Of a stretch of 37,520 bases of DNA, positions 7,756 to 36,776 are shown piece after piece. Numbering within the stretch: the stretch's first letter is position 1; each line of letters opens with the position of its first letter. Below the pieces are notes generated by a model that did no database searches, was not told the DNA's origin, and was given only the letters and a program-made list of their open reading frames with translations. A program made the translations under genes and the position numbers. This stretch comes from a virus (Duplodnaviria > Heunggongvirae > Uroviricota > Caudoviricetes): the IMG/VR virus record IMGVR_UViG_2541047896_000017. The stretch is one strand, 5' to 3'.

Positions 7756-8715
7756 ATGAAAATTTGTATCGACGACGGCTCCACCAACATCAAGCTGGCA
7801 TGGACTGAGAACGGCGAACGCCGCAACGCCATCAGCCCGAACAGCTTCAAGTCGGAATGGTCTGCGCCGTTCGGTGGCACGCAGCCCGCGAACTACATGC
7901 TTGATGGCGTGCGCTATGGTTTTGATCCGGTCAGCGATCGCTTTGTCCAGACGACCGACACGCAATACCAGTACAGCGATGTGAATATAATTGCCATTCA
8001 TCACGCGCTGGTCAAATCAGGCATCACACCACAGGAAGTGGATGTGGTTGTCACCCTGCCACTAAGCGAGTATTTCGATACAAACGCACAGCCGGACATG
8101 GCCAACATCAACCGCAAAAAAGCGAACGTCATGCGCCCGGTGGAGTACCAGAACGGCGAAGCATTCACTATCCGTAACGTACGGGTTATGCCTGAATCCA
8201 TTCCGGCTGGCTTTAAGGCACTGGCTGACATGAGTCCGTTTGAATCCCTGCTGATTGTGGATTTGGGCGGAACCACGCTGGATGTGGCAAAGGTTCAGGG
8301 GCAACTGGCAGGTATCAGCCAGGTGTTTTGCGATCCACACGTGGGCGTTTCTCTGATGGCCGATGCCGTACTGTCGGTGATGGCCACTAACGGTATGCGC
8401 ACCAGTCACCACATCGCCAATACCATTATCGAACATCGCCATGATGAAGCCTGGCTGCGCCAGCACATCCACAATGACGCGCATTACGCCAGCCTGATGG
8501 CGGTAATTCGTGAAAAGGAAGAAACACTGAAACAACGCGTGATCCGCGCGCTGGCGGGTTTTTCGGGTTACGGGCGGGTGATGGTTGTCGGTGGAGGGGC
8601 GGAGATTGTGGCACCCGCTATCCGCGAAGCCTGCGGAGTTAATGCGACTTTCATCGCGGACGGGGTGCCACAGTTTGCTCTGGTTAATGGGCTGTACGCA
8701 ATGGACAAGGAGTAA
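7756..8715 (+). CDS. parM: Actin-like segregation ATPase, ParM/StbA family
   Basis: 319 aa; N-terminus MKICIDDGSTNIKLAW and motifs VMPESIPAGF, LLIVDLGGTTLD, VMVVGGGAE closely resemble recalled plasmid R1 ParM. Confidence 0.8.
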   Translation: MKICIDDGSTNIKLAWTENGERRNAISPNSFKSEWSAPFGGTQPANYMLDGVRYGFDPVSDRFVQTTDTQYQYSDVNIIAIHHALVKSGITPQEVDVVVTLPLSEYFDTNAQPDMANINRKKANVMRPVEYQNGEAFTIRNVRVMPESIPAGFKALADMSPFESLLIVDLGGTTLDVAKVQGQLAGISQVFCDPHVGVSLMADAVLSVMATNGMRTSHHIANTIIEHRHDEAWLRQHIHNDAHYASLMAVIREKEETLKQRVIRALAGFSGYGRVMVVGGGAEIVAPAIREACGVNATFIADGVPQFALVNGLYAMDKE

Positions 8716-8719
8716 ACCA

Positions 8720-9031
8720 ATGACGACTCCAACCAGACGGATAAGTTTCTATCTGAAGCCCACCGCCGTCAAGAACGAAGGAGAAGCATGCGCCTGGCTG
8801 GACAGCCTTACACCAGAAGCCCGCAAAAGCGGCCAACGCGTGGCTTTTCTGGCCGGGCTGGCACTTCTGAAAATGAATCCGGCAGAGGCTTATCGACTGG
8901 CTGCATGGGCTGGTGATGAAGCGTTATCAGTGACACAAACCAGGACAGAACGCCCCGCATCACAGCCAGTATCAACCGCACAGATAACCAGTCAGATGGC
9001 CGGAAATATCCGGGCGTTATTTCCTGAATAA
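8720..9031 (+). CDS. parR: ParR-like centromere-binding adaptor
   Basis: 103 aa immediately downstream of parM; N-terminal RRISFYLKP...LTPEARKSGQRVAFLAGLALL resembles recalled R1 ParR. Confidence 0.6.
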   Translation: MTTPTRRISFYLKPTAVKNEGEACAWLDSLTPEARKSGQRVAFLAGLALLKMNPAEAYRLAAWAGDEALSVTQTRTERPASQPVSTAQITSQMAGNIRALFPE

Positions 9032-21391: not shown

Positions 21392-24049
21392 ATGAGCACG
21401 AAATTTAAAACCGTTATCACTACTGCCGGAGCCGCGAAGCTGGCAGCCGCCACTGTCCCCGGCGGGAAAAAAGTAACTCTGTCTGCAATGGCCGTGGGTG
21501 ACGGTAATGGCAAATTGCCGGTGCCGGATGCCGGTCAGACGAAACTGGTGCATGAGGTCTGGCGTCACGCTCTGAATAAAGTCAGCGTGGATAACAAGAA
21601 TAAAAACTATATCGTGGCTGAACTGGTTGTACCGCCAGAAGTGGGCGGCTTCTGGATGCGTGAGCTGGGTCTGTATGACGATGCCGGAACACTGATTGCG
21701 GTCGCTAACATGGCGGAAAGCTATAAACCTGAACTCGCTGAAGGCTCCGGGCGCGCGCAGACCTGCCGCATGGTTATTATTGTCAGCAACGTGGCGTCCG
21801 TTGAGCTGAGTATTGATGCCAGCACAGTGATGGCGACGCAGGATTACGTCGATGACAAAATCGCAGAGCATGAGCAATCCCGCCGCCATCCTGACGCCAC
21901 GCTGACAGAAAAAGGTTTTACTCAGTTAAGTAGCGCAACAAACAGCACCAGTGAAGAGCTGGCGGCAACGCCAAAGGCAGTAAAAGCAGCCTATGACAAT
22001 GCTGAAAAACGTATGCAGAAAGACCAGAACGGTGACGATATTCCAGATAAGGGCGCTTTTCTGGACAATGTTGGCGTTACCAGCCTGACGTTTATGAAAA
22101 ACAATGGCGAAATGCCGCTTGATGCTGACTTGAATACATTTGGTCCCGTTAAGGCTTATCTTGGCATCTGGTCTAAAGCAACATCCACCAACGCAACACT
22201 GGAGAAAAATTTCCCGGAAGATAATGCTGTCGGTGTGCTTGAGGTTTTTGCAGCTGGCAATTTTGCAGGCACGCAACGTTTTATCACGAGAGACGGCAAT
22301 GTATACATGCGTAAACTCGCCAATAAGTGGAATGGCACTGATGGTCCGTGGGGCGTATGGCGTCACACTCAATCAGCTACCCGCCCTTTGAGTACGACTA
22401 TAGACCTGAATACGCTTGGAGCCGCTGAGCATCTTGGTTTATGGCGTAACAGTAGCTCGGCTATAGCTTCATATGAACGCAATTATCCAGAGGAAGGCGG
22501 CTTTGCTCAGGGGACGCTTGAGATCCTCGAAGGCGGGAATTATGGAAGAACGCAACGTTATACCACTCGTCGTGGGAATATGTACGTTCGCTGCCTTGCG
22601 GCAAGCTGGGATGCATCAAATCCGCAGTGGGAACCGTGGTTAAGAGTCGGTCATCAGTCAGAGAGCCGTTATTACGAAGGTGATTTGAATGTTCTAACCG
22701 ACCCCGGTATTTACAGTGTTACAGGAAAGGCGACAAACGGTCCGATGCTGGACGCTGCTGGGGCGACATTGCTTGGGATACTGGAAGTAATCAGGCGTTT
22801 TGATGGTGTATCTGTCTGGCAGCGTTACACAACCACAGGAAAATCAGAAACCACACAGGGGCGCACTTTTGAGCGCGTCTACGCCGGGAGCACATGGACC
22901 GAATGGCGAGAAGTGTATAACTCCTTTTCGTTGCCCCTGAATATGGGGATCGGTGGCGCAGTGGCAAAACTCACCAGCCTGGACTGGCAGACCTACGATT
23001 TTGTGCCGGGCAGTCTGATAACCGTTCGGCTTGATAACATGACCAATATTCCCGACGGTATGGACTGGGGCGTCATTGATGGCAACCTGATAAACATCGC
23101 TGTTGGTCCGAGTGATAATTCCGGTACGGGGCGCTCAATGCATGTATGGCGCAGCACTGTAAGTAAAGCGAATTACCGCTTTTTTATGGTTCGCATTTCA
23201 GGAAATCCGGGAAGCCGCACGATTACGACAAGACGTGTGCCAATTATCGACGAAGCTCAGACATGGGCGGCGAAACAGACATTCAGCGGTGGTCTTTCTG
23301 GCGAACTATCCGGCAATGCTGCTACAGCAACAAAGCTGAAAACGGCAAGGACAATTAACGGCGTAAAATTTGACGGCTCGGCAAATATTGAAGCGTTTCC
23401 GCCAGGTGTTCCGCTGCCGTGGCCATCAGATACTGTGCCGTCTGGTTACGCCCTGATGCAGGGACAGACTTTTGATAAATCTGCATACCCGAAACTTGCA
23501 GTCGCTTATCCGTCAGGCGTGATCCCGGATATGCGTGGCTGGACAATCAAGGGCAAACCCGCCAGTGGTCGGGCCGTATTGTCTCTGGAACAGGACGGCA
23601 TTAAATCGCACACCCACAGTGCCAGCGCATCCAGTACGGATTTGGGTACGAAAACCACATCGTCGTTTGATTACGGTACTAAATCAACGAATAACACAGG
23701 TGCACATACCCACAATGTATCTGGTACTGCAAATAGTGCTGGCGCACATACTCATACCGTTCCATTAAGGAGACCAAACAGTGGCGGTATGAATTTCGAC
23801 TGGCTGGATGGTGCATCAAGTGGCACGGTGGTGGGGAATGGAACTGTGCCTTCTTCTGGCGCACATACCCACTCAGTATCAGGTACCGCTACAAGTGCTG
23901 GGGCACATGCACACACTGTTGGTATTGGCGCTCATACGCACTCTGTTGCGATTGGTTCACATGGACACACCATCACCGTTAACGCTGCTGGTAACGCGGA
24001 AAACACCGTTAAAAACATCGCATTTAATTATATTGTGAGGCTTGCATAA
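21392..24049 (+). CDS. H: Tail fibre protein, P2 H-like, with internally triplicated domain and His-rich C-terminal repeats
   Basis: 885 aa; conserved N-terminus [20 protein letters not shown]...; three DLN(T/V)(F/L)-initiated repeats of about 85-90 aa; C-terminal GAHTH repeats. Confidence 0.85.
23698..23976. repeat. Imperfect direct repeats encoding GAHTH(S/N)VSGTA(T/N)SAGAH motifs
   Basis: Two copies of about 57 bp (near 23698 and 23857) plus shorter GAHTHxV units. Confidence 0.6.
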
Positions 24050-24666
24050 TGGCATTCAGAATGAGTGAACAATCACGTACTGTAAAAATTTATAACCTGC
24101 TGGCCGGAACTAATGAGTTTATTGGTGAAGGTGACGCATATATTCCACCTCATACAGGGCTGCCAGCCAATTCTACAGATATCGCCCCACCGGAAATTCC
24201 TGCTGGCTTTGTGGCAGTTTTTAACAGTGAAAATGAATCGTGGAATATTGTTGAAGACCATCGTGGTAAAACGGTCTATGACGTGGCATCGGGGGACGCG
24301 TTGTTTATTTCTGAACCCGGACCGCTACCAGAGAATGTCACCTGGTTGTCGCCAGCAGGGGAGTATCAGAAGTGGGACGGCGTATCCTGGGTGAAGGATG
24401 AGGAAGCAGAAAAACTGTTTCGGATACGGGAAGCGGAAGAGAAAAAGGCAAGGTTGATCCAGGAAGCAACAGATAACATCGCAATTCTGCAGGATGCAGT
24501 TAATCTTGAAATAGCAACAAACGAGGAAAATTCACAACTGGATTCCTGGAGAAAATACAGAGTATTAGTGAGTAGAATTGACACCAGTACAGCTCCGGAT
24601 ATCGTATGGCCAGAGCTGATGAATCAGGGTTATGTGCGGGAGGACGAGCAGATAACTTCAGACTGA
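24049..24666 (+). CDS. G: Tail fibre assembly chaperone, P2 G-like
   Basis: 205 aa immediately after H, start overlaps H stop. Confidence 0.75.
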
Positions 24667-25193
24667 AATTTAGTGATGAATGTTGAATCATCTGGAATAT
24701 CATGCAATACCAATGCATGAGCACCTATTGTGACATTGTTTCCTATACGCACTTTGCCACCAAGAATGGTGGCATTACAACCAATGGTCACATTATGTCC
24801 TATAACAATATCCATATCATTAAAATCACCACGCAGCCCAATAGTTACCCCTGGTTTTATTGAACAATTTTCACCGATTGTTACTTTGTGACCGATAACA
24901 ACACTGTTGAGATAAGAAACATCAAAGCCTTTCCCTATATTTACAGTTAAAGGGACTGTTACATTATATTTATCAAGAATGAAACGTTCTATTTTCCCCG
25001 CAATCTTCCGACAGTATCCGCCTTTATCAAAAAGGTATTTGGCTATGCGCCACCAAAATAAATAACGAACTCTTCTATGTTTTATTGCGCGAACAATTGC
25101 CTTTCGCCAGGAGAAAGGACGCTCGCTACCGATTACTTCATAGTGAATACAATCTTTAAGTTCATTAATATTCATATCTCTATTATTCAGCAT
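24630..25193 (-). CDS. Hexapeptide-repeat (left-handed beta-helix) acyl/acetyltransferase; moron
   Basis: Hexapeptide repeats [14 protein letters not shown] / [33 protein letters not shown]; region visibly AT-rich; convergent 3' overlap with G. Confidence 0.7.
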
Positions 25194-25363: not shown

Positions 25364-25858
25364 TCAGAACAGCCCTTTAACTGAACTGGCCGCGCTGTTA
25401 AGGGATGATGTCACTTTATCTTTGAAGCCGGACAGCATATCGCTGAACGATGAGGATTGCAGGCGCTCCCGCAAATCCTCATCACAGCGTTCAAGGGTCA
25501 GTGAAAATTCTATCTTTTTCGCCTTACCGTAGAGATCAAACTCGGAACGGGTCGTATTCGTTTCGGTCAGGACATACATGCCGTAAATCTGCCCGACGCC
25601 ATCAATAAGAGGCCAGGGGCGTCCTGTATACGCCTGCGTGGTCAGCAGCGACAGCGACACTTCGCCACCTGTAATTTCAGGATAAAGCACACCAGAAAGA
25701 ACGATGCGATCATCACCTGCACCGATATACTGCCAGCTTGCTGAACGGTTAACGCGTTCATTTTTCACATGCCGCCAGCTTTTGTTTTGCTGTAACTGCT
25801 GATGCGGCAGCGTGCGCAGCTCAAAAACAAACATGCCGTAGATCATCATCATGGCCAT
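25364..25858 (-). CDS. U: Tail protein, P2 U-like
   Basis: 164 aa; SWRH...DDRIVLSGVLYPEITGG...WPLIDG resembles recalled P2 U. Confidence 0.85.
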   Translation of the reverse strand: MAMMMIYGMFVFELRTLPHQQLQQNKSWRHVKNERVNRSASWQYIGAGDDRIVLSGVLYPEITGGEVSLSLLTTQAYTGRPWPLIDGVGQIYGMYVLTETNTTRSEFDLYGKAKKIEFSLTLERCDEDLRERLQSSSFSDMLSGFKDKVTSSLNSAASSVKGLF

Positions 25859-25864
25859 GACTCC

Positions 25865-28708
25865 TCAATCTTTATCGTAAAAACTGCCACGCCCGGCACG
25901 GGCGCGCCGTTCCATTTCTGCCCTGACCATTTCACCGACCAGTTTCGCCAGTTCGCGGGGATTCTGCGTAACAACGTTATGCAGATGAACATGAATTTCA
26001 CCACCAAATCCGGAGGCAACAGGCTCCCGGTTACGGGAAGTTACAGGAACTGATGCCACTGGAGATCGTATGGCCTCCGCCACCGGGCGGGAGCTGGCCG
26101 CAACAACAGGGACCAGCGCCGGAGGCAGCGGAGCCGGGACCACGGGTGTGATATTAATTGCGGGGGCAGGCTTACTGACCTGCGCAATCTTCCGCTCCTG
26201 CCACTCTCCACGAACAGCAAGTGCGCGGGGCAGGTTCTTAAAGACAATATCGCCGGGGCCAATGCGTTTTTTCGTCTCATCAACCAGCTTACCTGTGTTA
26301 TCAGCAATTTTGCTGAGTCTGCGTAGCGTCCCGGTATTGCTGTCTGTGAGCGGTTTGTTGTCTTTGGGTTTATTACCTCCGGTGCCATTGCCATTTTCCA
26401 CAGGCTTCGGCGGATTGATTTTCGCCAGGTCACCCTGAAGCAAGGCAACCTTGTCCTGAAGAATGGCCGCACGCTGTGCGTCTTCGATTTTCTTGCGCGC
26501 TCTTTCCGCTTCATCCGGAAGGACGCCAAGTTTTTCAAGTATCCACGCCAGCGTATCCAGTAGCATTTTTGCAGGTGTCAGAACAAGCTGTAACGCACCG
26601 CCAAGAACGTTACCGAATATCTCGCCAGCACTGGTACATTTATCCAGCGTTTCCTTGCTGGACTCCATCGGTGACAGCAGCGATTTAAACCAGTTAAACA
26701 CCTGGCTGATCCCGCTTCCGATTGTGTCAAAAACAGGACCAAACCGTTCAAAGGTTTCGCGCAACGGGGTCAGCCTTTCCATAATCCCGCTGAACACCCC
26801 GGCAAAAAATGCCCTGATGGGATCCCAGTATTTCCAGATAAGAACGGCAGCTCCGGCAAGCGCAGCCACGATAAGACCAACCGGACTGAACAGCGCCCCG
26901 ATAGCGCCTCCCAGTAAAGAAACGGAACCCGTCACCATTCCCCACAGCGCAGGCAACACCCTGACGACATTCATTGACCGGGTAAGAATGTCAAAACCAA
27001 GACGCAGGGTGGCCAGCTTCCCGTAAAGCACCCCAATAACCAGCGACAACGAGCCAATCGTTGCAGTCATTGCCAGCAACGCACCGCCTGCTATCAGTAG
27101 CTGGCGCGTCAGTACCGGATGGGCCTGCGCCAGCGAGGTGATTTTTTCAAGCACCCGCGTGAGCCACTGCGTGACAGAACGCAGCGGACCGTCAACCAGA
27201 TCACTGATGCGAATACGAAGACCTTCCCATGCGCTGTCGAGATTTTTCAGGTCCCCATCAAGATTATCGGCCATTACTTTTGCGACGCGATCGGCCTCTC
27301 CCCTTGCCCCCTGCAATTCTCTGGTCAGTTTTTGCAGCTCTCCTGAACCAGCCGCCGCAACAAGCGTCTGCAAACCAACGAACGCCTCTTCTCCGGCGAT
27401 GTCCTTGAAGAAGGAAACCTGGTCCACCTGTCCGTATTTTTGTGTCGCCTTATAGAGATCAAGCAGCACATCCTCCATCGGGCGCATTTTGCCTCTGGCG
27501 TCAGCAACTGACACCCCCAGCTCTTTCAGTGCATCAGCCGCAGCTTTTGGCGGTGATGCAAGGCGGGACAGACTTGCGCGCATGGCCGTACCAGCATCGC
27601 TTCCGCGAAGACCATTATTGGCAAGCATCCCGGCCATGGCTGCCGCTTCTTCAAGACTGATACCAAGTTTTGCGGCAACCGGACCGGTATACTTCATGGT
27701 TTCGCCCAGCGCGCGTAAATCAGTATTGGTCCGGGTGAATGCTGCTGTCAGCGTATCGCCAACACGGTCCATTTGATCGGCTGTCAGGTTGAACTGTGTG
27801 AGGATATTGGAGCCTATATCAGCCGTCTCGCCGAGTTCGACGCCACCTGCCAGCGCCATATTAAGAACACCGGGCAATGCGGCCTGAATGGCCTGCGGAG
27901 TAAAACCAGCCATTGCCAGAAAGCTCTGCCCACTGGCGGCATCACTCGCAGTAAACTGTGTTTCAGAGCCAAGTTTTAACGCCTGCTCACGCAGCGCCTT
28001 AAACTGCGGGCTGTTTTTGTCGATTCGCGTCAGTGCCTGAACGCGGGACATCTCTTTGCCGAACCCGATCGCAGGCTGCAAAAAACGCCCGGCAGCATAG
28101 CCGCCCGCCGTTGCCGCACCAATTGCCAGCGCACCACCTGTTTTCAGTTTTCCCGCCGTTTCCTGCGCGCGCGAATACCGCTCACGCGCCCGTGTTACAC
28201 GCGCAAGCGCCTGCCGTTCGCGTTCAAGCTGGTTGTTGTACTGTTCGGTGCGTCTGATGGCCTGCTGGATGGTGTTATCGCTGCCTGTCAGGGAAATGCC
28301 GTGGCGTTTCAGCTCTCCGCCAAGCTCCCGCATTTTCTGAATTTCCCGTGTGCGCGATTCATTCAGGCGTTCAAGCCGGGTGCTTAACTGCTGCATCAGC
28401 TTTTGTTGTTTTTCGCTGAGCACTGTACCCGTGCGTTGTAACTGATTAAGGGCGTTAAGCTGGCGTCGTGCTTTCAATATGCCAGCATCCGCTTTACTGA
28501 CAGCGTCACGGGCGCGCTCAAATGAACGCGCCTGACGCTCGAGATTTTTGATCGCCCCCTGCGTTCGCTGGATGGAGTCACCAAACTGCCCCATCAGGCG
28601 GCGGGCGTTTTCGGCAGGCCGGGTCAGCCTGTCAACGGCGCTGAAAGCGACCCGGATGTCAAGAGTCTTCATTGTCTGCATTCCCGCTGCGAAGTGCCGC
28701 CCGCTCAC
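25865..28708 (-). CDS. T: Tail tape measure protein, P2 T-like
   Basis: 947 aa, coiled-coil rich N-terminus, hydrophobic/Gly-rich middle; lies between E' and U. Confidence 0.85.
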   Translation of the reverse strand: MSGRHFAAGMQTMKTLDIRVAFSAVDRLTRPAENARRLMGQFGDSIQRTQGAIKNLERQARSFERARDAVSKADAGILKARRQLNALNQLQRTGTVLSEKQQKLMQQLSTRLERLNESRTREIQKMRELGGELKRHGISLTGSDNTIQQAIRRTEQYNNQLERERQALARVTRARERYSRAQETAGKLKTGGALAIGAATAGGYAAGRFLQPAIGFGKEMSRVQALTRIDKNSPQFKALREQALKLGSETQFTASDAASGQSFLAMAGFTPQAIQAALPGVLNMALAGGVELGETADIGSNILTQFNLTADQMDRVGDTLTAAFTRTNTDLRALGETMKYTGPVAAKLGISLEEAAAMAGMLANNGLRGSDAGTAMRASLSRLASPPKAAADALKELGVSVADARGKMRPMEDVLLDLYKATQKYGQVDQVSFFKDIAGEEAFVGLQTLVAAAGSGELQKLTRELQGARGEADRVAKVMADNLDGDLKNLDSAWEGLRIRISDLVDGPLRSVTQWLTRVLEKITSLAQAHPVLTRQLLIAGGALLAMTATIGSLSLVIGVLYGKLATLRLGFDILTRSMNVVRVLPALWGMVTGSVSLLGGAIGALFSPVGLIVAALAGAAVLIWKYWDPIRAFFAGVFSGIMERLTPLRETFERFGPVFDTIGSGISQVFNWFKSLLSPMESSKETLDKCTSAGEIFGNVLGGALQLVLTPAKMLLDTLAWILEKLGVLPDEAERARKKIEDAQRAAILQDKVALLQGDLAKINPPKPVENGNGTGGNKPKDNKPLTDSNTGTLRRLSKIADNTGKLVDETKKRIGPGDIVFKNLPRALAVRGEWQERKIAQVSKPAPAINITPVVPAPLPPALVPVVAASSRPVAEAIRSPVASVPVTSRNREPVASGFGGEIHVHLHNVVTQNPRELAKLVGEMVRAEMERRARAGRGSFYDKD

Positions 28709-29188
28709 GCCAGCTAACCACTTCGCCGGGCGTCATCATGAAGATTTCGGCGGGCGACCAGTTAAAAATGGCGGCAATATCCGCCACCAGATCTTCGATG
28801 TGCTCAAAGCACACCAGGGTGATTACGCTGCCGTCTCCTGCACGCTCTTCGCGCCAGAGTCTGGCTCGCTCATAAAATTTACAGCCACAGCGCACAACTG
28901 AATAAAATCGCGTGACGACATTTTTTTAATCATCACTTCATCCAGTCGTGGCGAGGTCACGCGAGGCAACAGCGTGAACATGGTATCCGCTTTCAGATTC
29001 AGCACATCAGACAGCGACAGACCACGCAGGGATCCAGCCTGCTCAATAGCCCCGGTGATCTCCACATACGTGATTTTTTCGCCACCACGCTCAATTGGTC
29101 GGGTCAGTTTTACGCCACGCTCGCTGGTTTCTTTCACAGTGTCAGCAACGACCGTATTTTCGGTATCGATGTTTTTCGTCACTTTCAT
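28659..29188 (-). CDS. E': Tail assembly chaperone E+E' fusion, predicted product of -1 frameshift
   Basis: The 28659..28895 ORF is in the -1 frame relative to E; that frame opens immediately after an A7 run (plus-strand T7 at 28920-28926) inside E. Confidence 0.6.
28823..29188 (-). CDS. E: Tail assembly chaperone, P2 E-like
   Basis: ..LRGLSLSDVLN...LLPRVTSP.. resembles recalled P2 E; position between FII and T. True start may lie downstream of 29188. Confidence 0.7.
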   Translation of the reverse strand: MKVTKNIDTENTVVADTVKETSERGVKLTRPIERGGEKITYVEITGAIEQAGSLRGLSLSDVLNLKADTMFTLLPRVTSPRLDEVMIKKMSSRDFIQLCAVAVNFMSEPDSGAKSVQETAA

Positions 29189-29242
29189 CAGGAAACTCCT
29201 TTCAGTCAGAGGCGACGCACTGCGCCGCCTGCATATTACTTA

Positions 29243-29755
29243 TCAGCCAAGCCCGAGCGCGGAACGGATGCGATCGGGCACAATGTCCTTGCCGTCCTTC
29301 CGGTAAATGAAGTTCAGCAGGTCAATCTCCCACAACGGGCGATCGTTAACACTCAGCTTGTAGTAGGTGTTTTTAATGGCGTAAGTGTGTGATGTGGCTT
29401 CGCCCTGTTTGGCTTCCCCCATATCAATTTCCGTCACACGTCCGCGCATTTCGACTTCATACAGGTCGCTTTCATCATCGGTGTAGTATTCACCCGCAAA
29501 ACGCAGTAGCGTGCCGTCAATCGTGCCGCCATACTTCAGGAACAGCTCACGAACTGCGCCCCCCATGACAAAGCTCGCATCAAGCGCGGAGTCGTCCAGA
29601 CCGAGATCAATACTTACCGCCCCCATCATGCCACCACCCCGGTAGCTGTCGGTTTTGCGCGTCAGTTTAGGCAGGGTGACGGACGTCACCTTACCCACTT
29701 CGTTTTCACCATCCACAAACAGCGTAAAAAAGCGAAGATGTTTTGGTACAGCCAT
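29243..29755 (-). CDS. FII: Tail tube protein, P2 FII-like
   Basis: 170 aa; MAVPKHLRFFTLFVDGE.. matches recalled P2 FII. Confidence 0.85.
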   Translation of the reverse strand: MAVPKHLRFFTLFVDGENEVGKVTSVTLPKLTRKTDSYRGGGMMGAVSIDLGLDDSALDASFVMGGAVRELFLKYGGTIDGTLLRFAGEYYTDDESDLYEVEMRGRVTEIDMGEAKQGEATSHTYAIKNTYYKLSVNDRPLWEIDLLNFIYRKDGKDIVPDRIRSALGLG

Positions 29756-30939
29756 CAGGCACCTCCCAGCACCGCAAATGCGGGACCAAAGAATTCATCA
29801 GTAAACGACTGGTAAAGCTCCATGTCTTCCAGCGGAGGAACGGGCGTATATTTGTAGCGAATACGCACACGCCCCTGACGTAAATTCGTGGTGCTGTTAT
29901 CCACGATGTCATACCAGCACTCCGCGCCAATCAGTTTCCCGGCAGTAACCAGTGAATCCAGTTTTGCCCTGATGGCACTGATAACATCCTTCACGTTCGC
30001 AGGCGTCAGTGGACTGTCGATGGTTTCAAACTGCGCTTCCGCAATTGAATCAGCCAGCACCTGTGCAGTTCGGGTATACACCTCAAAGATGTAGGCGTTC
30101 GTTTCCGGTGTGCGGTTGCCCCAGAAGCGGAACCCGTTGCGACGAATAATGGTCGTGATTTCTTTGTTGTTGAGGCTGTTGGCATCGCTGTCTTCGGCCT
30201 GCAACGACCAGAACACATGCCTGGACATCCCCAGCACATTTTTAACCGGAACATTGGACAGTGATTTGTGCCATCCCTGCTCATGGTCAATGTACGCACG
30301 AAGGCCGCACGCATAGGCAGGCGCGGGGAACGTTTCGTTTTTGCCACTTTTCGGGTTGTAGGCGATGAAGTCCGGCCATAAGAGCATCACCTCACGTTCA
30401 TTGAATTTCTGGCGGTAGGTAATCGCCTCAGCCATCGTGTTACAGCCGTGACATGAGGCATACACAAACGCGCGCAGTTTACCCGCAATCACGCACAGGG
30501 ATTTTGTTACCGCCTCCGTGTCCAGCTCCGGCGCGGCCAGAATACGCGGACGGTATCCGATGCTTTCATCCTGCTCTGCAACAAGCAGCGCATACATCCC
30601 CGTATAGCTGCCGTCAGATTCAGAACCACCGATAACCAGTTGATCCTGCGTTTTTCCGTCTTCTTCTTTGTGTTCAGCCACGCGAACGACGATCACCTTT
30701 GTGCTCACCTGGTCTGCGATGGCCTTAAGCGCACGATAAAGCGTCCCCGTTGTTCCGCATTTTCCCAGCACGTCATTGACGCGGGTCAGCAGTGTGGGCT
30801 TGTTCAGCGGGAACAGCTCCGCGTCCGCATCATCCGCCATTGCCACGATACCGATAACACTGGAATCAACATCATTAATCGCTGTTACCAGGTCGGTACT
30901 TTCCGTAACACGGGCACCATGAAAACGAGTTTCACTCAT
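29755..30939 (-). CDS. FI: Contractile tail sheath protein, P2 FI-like
   Basis: 394 aa; DADAELFPLNKP, KLRAFVYAS, DHEQGWHKSLSNV, LIRRNGFRFWGNRT, YTRTAQVLAD, YTPVPPLE align with recalled P2 FI. Confidence 0.9.
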   Translation of the reverse strand: MSETRFHGARVTESTDLVTAINDVDSSVIGIVAMADDADAELFPLNKPTLLTRVNDVLGKCGTTGTLYRALKAIADQVSTKVIVVRVAEHKEEDGKTQDQLVIGGSESDGSYTGMYALLVAEQDESIGYRPRILAAPELDTEAVTKSLCVIAGKLRAFVYASCHGCNTMAEAITYRQKFNEREVMLLWPDFIAYNPKSGKNETFPAPAYACGLRAYIDHEQGWHKSLSNVPVKNVLGMSRHVFWSLQAEDSDANSLNNKEITTIIRRNGFRFWGNRTPETNAYIFEVYTRTAQVLADSIAEAQFETIDSPLTPANVKDVISAIRAKLDSLVTAGKLIGAECWYDIVDNSTTNLRQGRVRIRYKYTPVPPLEDMELYQSFTDEFFGPAFAVLGGA

Positions 30940-33010: not shown

Positions 33011-34205
<1,195 letters not shown>

Positions 34206-36408
34206 CTAATACTTGAGGATGCAACGAATCATTAGCCCCCCTGTTAATTACAGGTAGGTATGCCCATTCAATCTTTACTAAGTCGTCATCTGAAACAGTG
34301 TTATCATTTTGAATATAATTCACAAGTTCATTAAATGAGTGAATATCAAACCGCTCAATATTTTCTGTGGTTCTAATTGATTGCAATAGAGCAAGCACAA
34401 CCTTACTGCTATCAACTGAATTATCGATATGCAAAATTTTAGATAAACAATCTATTGCCATCAAGGGACGGTCTACTTTAATCAAGCAGTCTATAGCAAA
34501 ATAAATTTCTTCCGTTGAATCACAGCTGTATGCATTAACAAGAGTATTTTTCCAATACTCGAAAGGAAAATCATCAAATGAAGCGTTTAATGCATCCCAT
34601 GTTTCTTTTTTAAACGGTAACAAAAGAAAAAAAGCAATCTTTTCTTGAGCACTCCAGTCATTAATAACTGTCAACACCCATGATTTTCCTTCTCTGTAGT
34701 TTTTAGCCTGTACATAACCAGAAGCAAGAGAATTTTCCTTTTTAATATCACTAACAATAAGTTTTTTCAGTATATCTAAAGGAATTTCTAGATCTTCTGC
34801 GACCAGGCTACTACCAACAAACTCAGGCCTTTCAATAGATAGAGAGAATTCTAAGACTCCATCAATACCATTAATAGCATATATTTCGCATATTGATTGC
34901 CCTCGTTCTTTTGTCAACCTTTCTTCTTGGTCCCGCCAGTTTCCATTTTCATCAAATAGGAAGTAATTGTTTTGTGCAAAAAGTCGCTTGCTATAAAGCA
35001 TAGGATCTTCGGGCTTCAAGACTGTAGAAACATCTTTGATTTTTTCATTTTGTTCTGGTTGCATTGCCCAATAAGCACCTGAGAATCTTTTGTTTTTGTT
35101 ATAAACTTCTAAACATTTTTCCCACACCGCTAACTTCAATTCAGCACTATCTGTTTTTTTAGAAAAATCATACAATAGTTTAATTGCATCATCGAATTTA
35201 AATGGCGCTAAACTACCAATATTTTCAACTAAATCAACAAGTCTTAATGATGATTTACTTGCCAATTCAATTGTTAATTGAGTGTATATTTCAATCTGAG
35301 TACGGCACTCATCACCCGATGGCCTTTTATTAAAACCGTTAGGAATAAAGTTTCTAAAAGTTGGAATATGTGTGCCAGATGTTACTTGCGTGTTGTTGGG
35401 TAGCAACTGAACTAAAACACGCCATGCTGTATCGGGCCACTCCCTTGCCAATGCGTTGAAAGCAGCAATACGTCTATCTATATCAGCTGTAGTATGAGGA
35501 AGCCATGGTAACAATATGTTGATTATCGAGTTAAGTGGCCTGTTAGCCCAATTGCCACCAGGATCATGGCTATCCAGCTCCCCTAATATTACTAAAGAGC
35601 GAGATAAATAGTTAGGCGCCCAAGCTAATCCTTCAATAGCCCATAGCAGTCCTGTCATATAATTCCGACCTGAAATTCCACCGATACCTTCCTGTGCAAA
35701 AAGTGAATCAAATGGCTTGTCTTGGTGAGATGCAGCATTTTCCACTTCGTCGATAAAACAGTCAGGAGCACTTTCCGCAAGCATAACTTGAATATCTTGC
35801 GTACTAGCCCATAATTGCCAGCTAGAAGCCGAAAAAACCTCTTTAACCACACTTGAGGCGCAATATTGCCCTTTATATTTTGAGCAATTAGTAAGTAACT
35901 CTTGCTTTGTTGCAACTAATGCCAACCCTTCGGATAGTCCTTTCCTTATTAATCGGCTGTGTGGTAAAACCTTCCCATAAATTACTGCTGCATAACGCTC
36001 TTCAGGTGCCAGTTCAAATTGTGGGTCGATAGTTTTAAAAACGGATACAACAGTCGTCCGAAACAAATCCAAATGATCATCGAATAATCTTGACGATACC
36101 GTTTGAAATGTTTGTATTCTATCTTTAAAACTCCAAGAACCTCTCTCATGAATCAAAGGACTATCTTGCATCCCTTCAATTATTCTTAATTTTCGAATCC
36201 AACTGTCATATGACTCACCAATAAGGCTTGTAATTATATCAATATCACCATTATTTTTTTCATCCCAGCAACCGACTAAAACAGCAATCGCTAACTCAGT
36301 CGCATAATCAACATTATCACTATTGTATACAATTAAGTTACCAGCAACATTATGGCCTGGTCCGGTATGATTTTGACTAATTGAACTGCAGCTATGAATG
36401 TTATCCAT
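34206..36408 (-). pseudogene. N-terminal part (about 735 codons) of large AT-rich cargo gene, truncated by IS5
   Basis: ORF-track 743 aa ORF whose last 7 codons plus stop come from IS5; start ATG 36408 (RBS gagg) or GTG 36414. Confidence 0.75.
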
Positions 36409-36413
36409 AGACA

Positions 36414-36776
36414 CTACCTCGTAATTTTATTTCCACCAATATTATCACCAGTGCCACTATGGTTTTGAATAATGACAGTTGCTGCATGAGGTTTTATAGA
36501 CGAGAGTATTTTTTGAATTTCACTACTATCCAATAGTTTTCTTTCAATTGCTATTTCACTCATTTCATCGTTCAAAGACAGTTTTTCAAGCTCTTTAGCT
36601 AAAGCAGGGGCTACAGCCTCATCAACAACCCAATTTTTTAACTTTTCTTTTATTGAAGTTGCAGTAATCGAAACATGATGTTTAAGCATGTCATAAACTA
36701 TGCCAGAAAGTATCGCCGAAGATAAAAAATCCATAACAATTTCCTTTAACGTAAGATATTTACTATCCAGATACAT
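36414..36776 (-). CDS. Small protein (120 aa) tightly coupled upstream of the large cargo gene; unknown function
   Basis: Stop TAG overlaps/abuts the large gene start; AT-rich; C-terminal QNHSGTGDNIGGN motif. Confidence 0.6.
   Translation of the reverse strand: MYLDSKYLTLKEIVMDFLSSAILSGIVYDMLKHHVSITATSIKEKLKNWVVDEAVAPALAKELEKLSLNDEMSEIAIERKLLDSSEIQKILSSIKPHAATVIIQNHSGTGDNIGGNKITR

Follow-up and report, generated by a model that had tools for sequence, protein, structure and literature searches.

Needles with HxH-bound iron in fibres of the gp37/Stf type are described as structurally characterised since 2010, the year to which the crystal structure of the T4 gp37 tip (2XGF) is credited (Bartual et al. 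2010). In gp37, seven Fe ions are held by HxH motifs (PMC6957217; PMC11705849), and the replacement of either H929 or H931 by alanine abolishes plaque formation by T4 (Islam et al. 2019, PMC6957217, where the role of the structural glycines of gp37 is also treated). The same chemistry, an octahedral His6 site built on a three-fold axis from three HxH motifs, occurs with one site each in the R-type pyocin fibre (PA0620), the P2 gpV spike and T4 gp12; the first two contain Fe in this geometry, and the gp12 site holds Zn, possibly as an artefact of purification or because a zinc salt was used for refolding (PMC6116203). A 'T4- and lambda-based RBP family' has been described from more than 200 phages, comprising temperate myophages, lambda and T-evens, in which a modular tip of ~215 aa is followed by a downstream chaperone and divergence is limited to the equivalent of gp37 932-965 (Magaziner & Salmond 2022, PMC9659904). 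Chimeras of the P2 fibre have been engineered for retargeting (for example, PMC9594776).

The window analysed here, i.e. the whole stretch of 37,520 nt of a viral record (IMGVR_UViG_2541047896_000017), derives from a P2-like E. coli prophage that keeps the full P2-type structural gene set. Its tail-fibre gene (21392-24049; this gene, its parts, the DNA repeat and tfa described below all lie on the plus strand) encodes a gpH-type protein of 885 aa, delimited from the ORF list, Pfam and RefSeq, which we regard as a natural chimera. The same CDS is present in the RefSeq record of strain E5 as WP_000104716.1, a 'phage tail-collar fiber domain-containing protein' with a complete CDS, and the near-identical E5 prophage shows the baseplate genes V-W-J-I followed by the fibre and then by a fibre-assembly gene (RefSeq; ORF map). 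Pfam places Phage_tail_fib on residues 1-151 (PF12571, E = 1e-57), Phage_fiber_2 on 170-210, Collar on 672-719 and Phage_fiber on 767-780; NCBIfam gave no match for either the 885-aa fibre or its Tfa, and a 743-aa ORF among the neighbouring cargo genes returned nothing from searches of PADLOC, Pfam and the PDB. The assignment to a P2-type H protein, made by the first-pass annotation from the letters of the sequence, is borne out for the N-terminal 651 aa (21392-23344), a P2/Peduovirus-type part with a baseplate-attachment domain, a shaft and knob-like repeats: besides the Phage_tail_fib domain, Peduovirus H genes share 92-95% nucleotide identity with the fibre gene from query nt 1 to nt 1952/1967, and residues 167-233 match the fibre protein S of phage Mu (5YVQ/8JU3).

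Downstream of this part, the kinship with Peduovirus is lost within a short recombination joint (aa 652-675; 23345-23416), recognised by the divergence from Peduovirus H and by the onset of lambdoid Stf matches after a shared linker motif. This motif, containing (T/K)IN(G/N)V.FDG, starts at about residue 641 and extends into the joint interval. E. coli matches confined to the P2-type part stop at window nt 23343 and lambdoid Stf matches start at nt 23417, with one of the latter crossing the linker, and the swap point lies, as judged from these alignments, in or directly after the motif. The linker is common to our fibre and to the H proteins of vB_YpM_22 and of NC_070906, an assembly labelled 'Peduovirus P2'; past it, those two proteins diverge and contain no HxH, and the receptor-binding domain at the C-terminus of the Peduovirus H proteins examined (ending in ...YINGTWYNVAQV, with no HxH) is absent from the 885-aa protein. 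Since the C-terminus differs from those of the other Peduovirus H proteins examined, the fibre should be regarded as a gpH chimera rather than as a canonical gpH; and since those proteins have their own C-terminal domain of ~260 aa past the same junction, the event was a swap and not an addition. A dual-receptor fibre, combining the receptor-binding domain of P2 with a gp37 tip, was considered and rejected, as the shared Peduovirus part stops at about residue 651.

The C-terminal module that replaces the P2 domain contains, within its last 150 codons, seven HxH units, with first histidines at residues 740, 772, 786, 825, 839, 848 and 857, which read, from N- to C-terminus, KSHTH, GAHTH, GAHTH, GAHTH, GAHAH, GAHTH and GSHGH. 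All 14 histidines of the last 170 residues fall within these motifs, and none of 20,000 shuffles reached seven HxH, either of the whole protein (mean 0.52, maximum 5) or of its last 150 aa (mean 1.2, maximum 6). The His-rich repeats reported in the first-pass annotation are therefore real, and six of them do lie in the interval given there (23698-23976), which starts one base ahead of the Gly codon at 23699; the total, however, is seven, as a unit further upstream (SHTHS, 23606-23620) had been missed. The regular spacing claimed for the units holds only in part: there is no uniform period but a pattern shared with T4 gp37, with successive steps of 32, 14, 39, 14, 9 and 9 residues in our fibre versus 32, 14, 37, 14, 9 and 9 in gp37, i.e. 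the same save for two more residues across the tip. When seven fibre sequences of P2-like, lambdoid and T-even phages are aligned, the seven HxH are moreover invariant.

The resemblance to the tip of T4 gp37 that had been noticed turns out to be homology. A phmmer search against the PDB gave 2xgf_A with E = 1e-85, query residues 18-249 aligning with residues 17-242 of the chain (T4 gp37 785-1026) up to the last residue of both sequences, and the C-terminal module of ~232 aa shows 63% identity to gp37, including identical last 16 residues. All 14 histidines pair one-to-one with those of gp37. The module opens with a Collar domain (aa 667-717; 23390-23542; PF07484, E = 1.3e-10) that corresponds to gp37 811-861 with 78% identity. 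Next comes the descending needle half (aa 718-788; 23543-23755; 76% identity to gp37 862-931), which carries HxH 1 (H740-T-H742; 23609-23617, the unit outside the earlier coordinates), HxH 2 (H772/H774; 23705-23713) and HxH 3 (H786/H788; 23747-23755), the equivalents of H883/885, H915/917 and H929/931 of gp37. After the tip, the ascending half (aa 825-885; 23864-24046; 77% identity to gp37 966-1026) bears HxH 4 (H825/H827; 23864-23872), HxH 5 (H839/H841; 23906-23914), HxH 6 (H848/H850; 23933-23941) and HxH 7 (H857/H859; 23960-23968), aligned with H966/968, H980/982, H989/991 and H998/1000, and ends in an invariant C-terminus. Two glycines with a structural role in gp37, G921 and G964, are retained as G778 and G823. 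Each HxH thus occupies the position of an Fe-coordinating HxH of gp37, which supports, by way of homology, the metal-stabilised tip that had been suggested for this protein. In T4, the module sits at the distal half-fibre, whereas here it is mounted on a P2-type gpH. With short tail fibres the protein also has a Collar domain in common (9CUY, E = 2.8e-6, query 32-161), but membership of the T4 gp12 type was discarded, because the 9cuy match is limited to the collar region and the fibre has seven HxH, not one. No sequence homology was detected between the needle and the R-type pyocin fibre, P2 gpV or T4 gp12, each with its single site.

Between HxH 3 and HxH 4 lies the only part of the module in which this conservation breaks down, a hypervariable tip or head (aa 789-824; 23756-23863) presumed to be the receptor-contact surface. 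Its 36 residues show just 12% identity to gp37 932-965, with two residues more, and most of the residues on which T4 depends for binding to OmpC/LPS are replaced (G938S, G942N, G943F, S947D and Y949A). Among the aligned fibres, the same tip occurs only in phage vB_EcoM-613R2, and its specific stretch of 141 nt is present in 173 of 5426 E. coli genomes. As the tip is unrelated to those of T4 or lambda, the receptor is probably different from theirs, and by homology with gp37 this exposed segment would set which host surface molecule is bound. A diverged tip between conserved halves of the needle is a pattern seen across phages and also described in PMC9659904.

At the DNA level, the tip-coding segment is bracketed exactly by a 63-nt direct repeat encoding 21 residues (left copy, 23699-23761; right copy, 23858-23920), found in a repeat search, whose copies show 78% identity and lie 159 nt apart. 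Such an arrangement raises the question of whether the GxHxH units are mainly 'His boxes', that is, recombination sites for the swap or duplication of tips, with metal binding as a secondary feature. In the T4 fibre adhesin, such boxes border a small domain that undergoes duplication. An older literature on His boxes exists, by Tetart, Krisch, Sandmeier and Haggard-Ljungquist. Neither 'GXHXH' nor 'His boxes' appears as a term in the papers that our literature search listed. Small-domain duplications in the T4 fibre adhesin, the subject of work by Tetart and co-workers in 1996, reportedly expand host range. In P2-like, lambdoid and T-even fibres alike, divergence is restricted to the tip and the flanks are nearly identical, which would also fit a role in exchange. 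However, the histidines are invariant in the protein, yet the DNA copies of the repeat differ at 22% of positions, and in the homologue the same histidines coordinate Fe in the crystal, and T4 loses plaque formation when H929 or H931 is changed to alanine (PMC6957217). A primarily recombinational purpose is therefore possible but doubtful and, being compatible with a metal role, would be an additional consequence of the units rather than an alternative to it.

With the metal-bound needle as the preferred reading, the architecture known from gp37 can be transferred to our fibre in some detail. Three fibre chains would trimerise from their C-termini with the assistance of the Tfa encoded downstream; each chain would run down from the collar as a beta-strand, form the small tip and return upwards, and the three together would build a six-stranded antiparallel needle. 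Both histidines of every HxH would face the three-fold axis, six of them per site forming an octahedral site around one buried metal ion, which is Fe(II) in gp37, and seven such ions in line would rivet the thin needle together. The trimeric six-stranded beta-needle is predicted from the 63% identity to the gp37 crystal structure, which carries more weight than a model of the monomer would. A single-sequence AlphaFold2 model of the monomer (aa 650-885) was uninformative, with a mean pLDDT of 39.8, a pTM of 0.16 and almost no secondary structure, an outcome that is to be expected because the needle would be an obligate interdigitated, metal-bound trimer. Metal occupancy is likewise suggested by homology, and the identity of the metal is carried over from gp37. 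It could be argued that the sites hold another metal (such as Zn or Ni) or are only partially occupied, which would make the needle metal-stabilised but not an iron protein: a metal cannot be read from sequence, and the HxH site of T4 gp12 contains Zn in crystals, although possibly from refolding in zinc salt (PMC6116203). Nevertheless, the needle is 76-77% identical to that of gp37, whose seven sites all hold Fe, and the HxH sites known from R-pyocin and from P2 gpV likewise contain Fe (PMC6116203), which makes a different metal or partial filling quite unlikely.

Neither does the gene look like a relic. The prophage window also contains an IS element (33157-34137), and many stf genes of E. 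coli reside in cryptic prophages, like stfR of Rac, so that the repeats might be contemplated as an accident of composition, or as what is left of a functionless fibre gene decaying in a defective prophage. This is very improbable, however, considering that no shuffle matched the motif count, that the ORF is intact, annotated as a complete CDS and with a stop codon overlapping the start of tfa (ATAATG, 24047-24052), that a 9-kb region is at least 98.5% identical among the genomes listed, and that the set of P2-type structural genes is complete. The 'Ferrojan horse', put forward for fibres with HxH motifs (Bonnain et al. 2016, as cited in PMC11705849), in which the tip iron would itself be the ligand and, mimicking an iron-siderophore complex, dock on a TonB-dependent siderophore receptor, is extremely improbable here, since the ions of the homologue are buried, unexposed, along the needle's three-fold axis, T4 binds OmpC/LPS through residues of the tip surface (PMC6957217) and specificity tracks the variable tip rather than the invariant HxH.

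The cassette does not end with the fibre. The next gene (24049-24666; Pfam Caudo_TAP, E = 1.6e-39) codes for Tfa, a chaperone of tail-fibre assembly that is the HxH module's cognate partner. It shares 81% identity with lambda Tfa (orf-194) and 36% with T4 gp38 over 121 aa, and its C-terminus matches Tfa U of phage Mu (5YVQ_B). The chaperone is of the lambda-Tfa type, in contrast to the gp38 of T4, and gp57A would be expected to be absent from a P2-like prophage. Lambda Stf (orf-314 of lambda PaPa / Ur-lambda Stf) is the closest classical relative, with a C-terminal module 75% identical to ours and the same order of fibre and tfa with overlapping stop and start codons; it differs in its eight HxH units, in an additional duplication of FDYGTK and in a longer tip, and in being a siphovirus side fibre attached by another N-terminal part. 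Among phage records, identity of 95% or more over the C-terminal 234 aa is reached solely by Escherichia phage vB_EcoM-613R2, whose 'side tail fiber protein Stf' (URC09213.1) shows 96.6% over this stretch and carries the same tip; the tfa and the convergent acetyltransferase gene that follow it are the same as well. That fibre has 948 aa with a different N-terminal part of ~177 aa (the megablast match begins at query nt 531), and the backbone of the phage is similar to RepA phage-plasmids of ~47 kb. The family of T4- and lambda-based tips, with a gp38/Tfa-like chaperone directly downstream, includes ORF6/ORF5 of Citrobacter phage PhiNP and Salmonella phage SEN5 (PMC9659904); the PhiNP fibre has 282 aa versus 885 here, and common membership is argued via the shared relatives T4 and lambda. 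Modules of the gp37/Stf type are found in 3,906 of 5,426 complete E. coli genomes; stfR/tfaR of K-12 is one of these modules. About 213 genomes of the set bear the P2::Stf chimera.

Directly beyond tfa, a convergent, low-GC gene for a hexapeptide (LbH) acetyltransferase (24630-25193, minus strand) nearly always accompanies this tip, the one part of the module that goes beyond the textbooks. It was detected at a fixed distance in 160 of the 173 tip-bearing E. coli genomes, and in 184 genomes overall, versus the 3,906 with any gp37/Stf-type module, and the tip-acetyltransferase cassette occurs on three backbones, namely the chromosomal P2-like prophage, the ~47-kb RepA phage-plasmids and ~96-kb plasmids with phage genes. 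A comparable case is neuO, which adjoins the tailspike of CUS-3. Another is the neaT moron, located at the same P2 position (PMC3573123). It is tempting to consider tip and enzyme as a functional pair, in which the acetyltransferase would modify the very surface glycan recognised by the tip, but this is unlikely, and their joint travel is equally well explained by plain physical linkage over 1.4 kb. If the pairing were true, lysogens would be shielded from superinfection and the progeny kept from re-adsorbing, and this linkage is the sole lead of the locus that might merit an experiment.

In any case, the P2-type fibre very probably carries a recombined lambda-Stf/T4-gp37 cassette of collar, needle and tip together with its own Tfa gene, a conclusion for which the direct evidence consists of the motifs, the end-to-end homology, the one-to-one histidines, the junction of the chimera, the chaperone gene linked to the fibre and the broad occurrence of the module. 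This module is a common, already described cassette, and the finding is correct but ordinary: the exact protein is already in RefSeq, a near-identical fibre exists in a deposited phage, and the modular spread together with Tfa has been published. A sharper annotation would nonetheless be possible, such as 'gpH::Stf-type chimeric fibre with a gp37-like seven-site metal needle', the metal being assigned by homology. Finally, the fibre may be seen as a natural counterpart of the engineered P2-fibre chimeras, in which a joint at aa 652-675, after the linker, would be one that works in nature.

The histidine repeats that the first-pass annotation had placed at 23698-23976 lie within the last 150 codons of an 885-residue fibre ORF (21392..24049, +), and GAHTH-type units are indeed present at the C-terminus of this protein (sequence not shown). 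The protein has seven HxH units, with first histidines at residues 740, 772, 786, 825, 839, 848 and 857, a number reached in 0 of 20,000 shuffles of either the whole protein or its last 150 residues. The last 170 residues contain 14 histidines, every one of them within such a motif. The earlier count of at least six units holds for the interval, which contains six of the seven, but has to be corrected to seven, since one more (SHTHS, nt 23606-23620) maps upstream. As for their regular spacing, the intervals (32, 14, 39, 14, 9 and 9 residues) are patterned, but show no uniform period.

Pfam searches place Phage_tail_fib at residues 1-151 of the fibre (E = 1e-57), Phage_fiber_2 at 170-210, a tail Collar domain (PF07484) at 672-719 and the 14-residue "Phage tail fibre repeat" (PF03335) on one GAHTH unit. 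The alignment of the C-terminal fragment with 2XGF (E = 1e-85), the crystal structure of the T4 gp37 receptor-binding tip, runs from residue 18 of that fragment to the final residue of both sequences. The aligned C-terminal module is 63% identical to T4 gp37 and, in the same alignment, 75% identical to lambda Stf (orf-314), 62% to Salmonella phage RE2010 and 97% to phage vB_EcoM-613R2. In line with the likeness to the T4 tip proposed earlier, the 14 histidines correspond one-to-one with gp37 H883/885, H915/917, H929/931, H966/968, H980/982, H989/991 and H998/1000. Identity to gp37 reaches 78% in the collar (gp37 811-861), 76% in the descending needle (862-931) and 77% in the ascending needle (966-1026), and only 12% in the tip (932-965), where most function-critical residues of gp37 differ in the window's fibre. 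The structural glycines G921 and G964 are retained as G778 and G823. A second alignment, which includes lambdoid 2H10, Salmonella SPF_0923 and Mosigvirus G2285, shows seven invariant HxH pairs and variation in the tip alone. The relation to the gp37 tip is one of homology and goes beyond resemblance.

In gp37, three chains form a six-stranded antiparallel beta-needle ending in a small head, as summarised in PMC9659904. Seven iron atoms lie in line along the needle, each bound by HxH histidines from the three chains, and H929 and H931 are essential for T4 plaque formation (PMC6957217; PMC11705849). R-type pyocin fibres and the P2 gpV spike likewise have octahedral His6-Fe sites built from HxH motifs, and T4 gp12 holds Zn at an HxH-type site (PMC6116203). 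By homology with gp37, a trimer of the window's fibre would bury seven metal ions riveting the needle, and the 36-residue tip between the third and fourth HxH units (residues 789-824, nt 23756-23863) would be the receptor-contact surface. T4 and lambda have tips unrelated to this one, so their receptors are not transferable to the window's fibre. Structure prediction from the single sequence as a monomer was uninformative. The comparison with gp37 supports the proposed metal-stabilised fibre tip on a P2-type H protein, its metal content and trimeric fold being predicted.

The rest of the fibre justifies the name of P2-type H protein. The window is a P2-like E. coli prophage with portal, terminase, capsid, lysis, V-W-J-I-H-G, FI-FII-E-T-U and D genes, and over its first 1952-1967 nt, which include the Phage_tail_fib region, the fibre gene shows 92-95% identity to Peduovirus H genes. 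In the two Peduovirus H proteins translated for comparison ("Peduovirus P2" assembly NC_070906 and vB_YpM_22), a common linker, 13 residues followed by (T/K)IN(G/N)V.FDG, leads into another C-terminal domain without HxH. Among E. coli genomes, matches to the P2 part only stop at nt 23343, lambdoid-Stf matches start at nt 23417 and one lambdoid Stf match crosses the linker; the two boundaries place the recombination joint at residues 652-675. Within the P2-type part (21392-23344, +), residues ~230-540 comprise three tandem stretches of ~90 residues that look related by eye, each opening with D.DLN.., and recall the knob domains found in R-type pyocin fibres. The annotation of some E. coli relatives reads "pyocin knob domain-containing protein", and no PDB sequence match covers these stretches.

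Directly downstream, the tail-fibre assembly chaperone Tfa (Pfam Caudo_TAP, 24049-24666) starts in overlap with the fibre stop codon. Its identity is 81% to lambda Tfa and 36% to T4 gp38, and the C-terminal part also matches the Tfa of phage Mu (5YVQ_B). Trimerisation of gp37 needs gp38 (PMC3004832), which the Ur-lambda tail fibre assembly protein can functionally replace (cited in PMC9659904). It follows that tip and chaperone were imported together.

The gp37/Stf-type tip module is already known and very common. DNA matches to the C-terminal 705 nt occur in 3,906 of 5,426 complete E. coli genomes, including stfR/tfaR of K-12, and a tblastn search detects it in 638 phage records, which include T-evens, lambdoids, Felixounaviruses and P2-like phages. 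The segment spanning the P2::Stf junction is present in 213 of the 5,426 genomes, and the 9-kb neighbourhood, at >=80% coverage, in at least 52. PMC9659904 describes module plus chaperone as a family with more than 200 phage members.

The FI-FII-E-T-U block (tail sheath, tube, E, E', tape-measure and U; 25364-30939, -) runs opposite to H-G and D and is inverted relative to the canonical P2 order. The acetyltransferase gene that overlaps tfa follows U, with the same orientation; at least 52 E. coli genomes share this arrangement at >=80% coverage. An IS5-type DDE transposase (DDE_Tnp_1 and DUF772; 33157-34137, -) separates gpD from a two-gene block of low GC content (34-42%; 34183-36776, -). 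One product, of 120 residues, carries the Pfam HetE-N domain (E = 1.7e-38); the other, of 743 residues, has no match in Pfam, NCBIfam or PADLOC, and only a chance-level one in the PDB (E = 0.24). Because the site downstream of gpD is a variable spot of P2-like prophages, the pair is a candidate anti-phage or abortive-infection system, carried as defence cargo. The near-identical prophage of E. coli strain E5 holds other cargo there (YecA family protein, Ogr and Hok). In the early region (7756-8715, +, and 8585-9031, +; L001, 7306-8581), the E5 annotation lists a segregation ATPase of the ParM type together with a partitioning protein, which an integrated P2-like phage does not usually carry.

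Returning to the fibre, two direct-repeat copies of 63 nt (23699-23761 and 23858-23920, 78% identity) bracket the tip-coding segment. They encode two GAHTH-x9-GAH(T/A)H arms, one on each side of the tip in sequence, which by homology to gp37 should lie next to each other in the needle. Recombination between flanks conserved in this way could plausibly exchange or duplicate tips. T4 host range is known to widen through duplications of a small fibre-adhesin domain (Tetart et al. 1996). The segment so duplicated is reportedly flanked by "His boxes". This recombination role would follow from the repeats as well and does not compete with metal binding.

A last question concerns the 187-residue hexapeptide/LbH acetyltransferase (24630-25193, -; GC 38-42%) that faces tfa in convergent orientation, with a 37-nt overlap at the 3' end of tfa. 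The enzyme is similar to CysE, EpsC and WcaB, scoring under every NCBIfam cut-off. Of the E. coli genomes, 173 carry the tip-specific 141 nt and 184 the acetyltransferase; a concatenated probe requiring both for >=80% coverage finds them together in 160 of the 173 tip-bearing genomes, with a span of 1411 nt in nearly all joined matches listed. This cassette resides in three backbones: a chromosomal P2-like prophage, ~47-kb RepA phage-plasmids and ~96-kb plasmids with phage genes, the latter possibly P1-like. In strain CFT073 this P2 moron position, between G and FI, holds a different acyltransferase gene, neaT, which affects virulence (PMC3573123). The acetyltransferase may be a receptor-modifying moron, and one could speculate that it modifies the receptor of the very tip to which it is linked.
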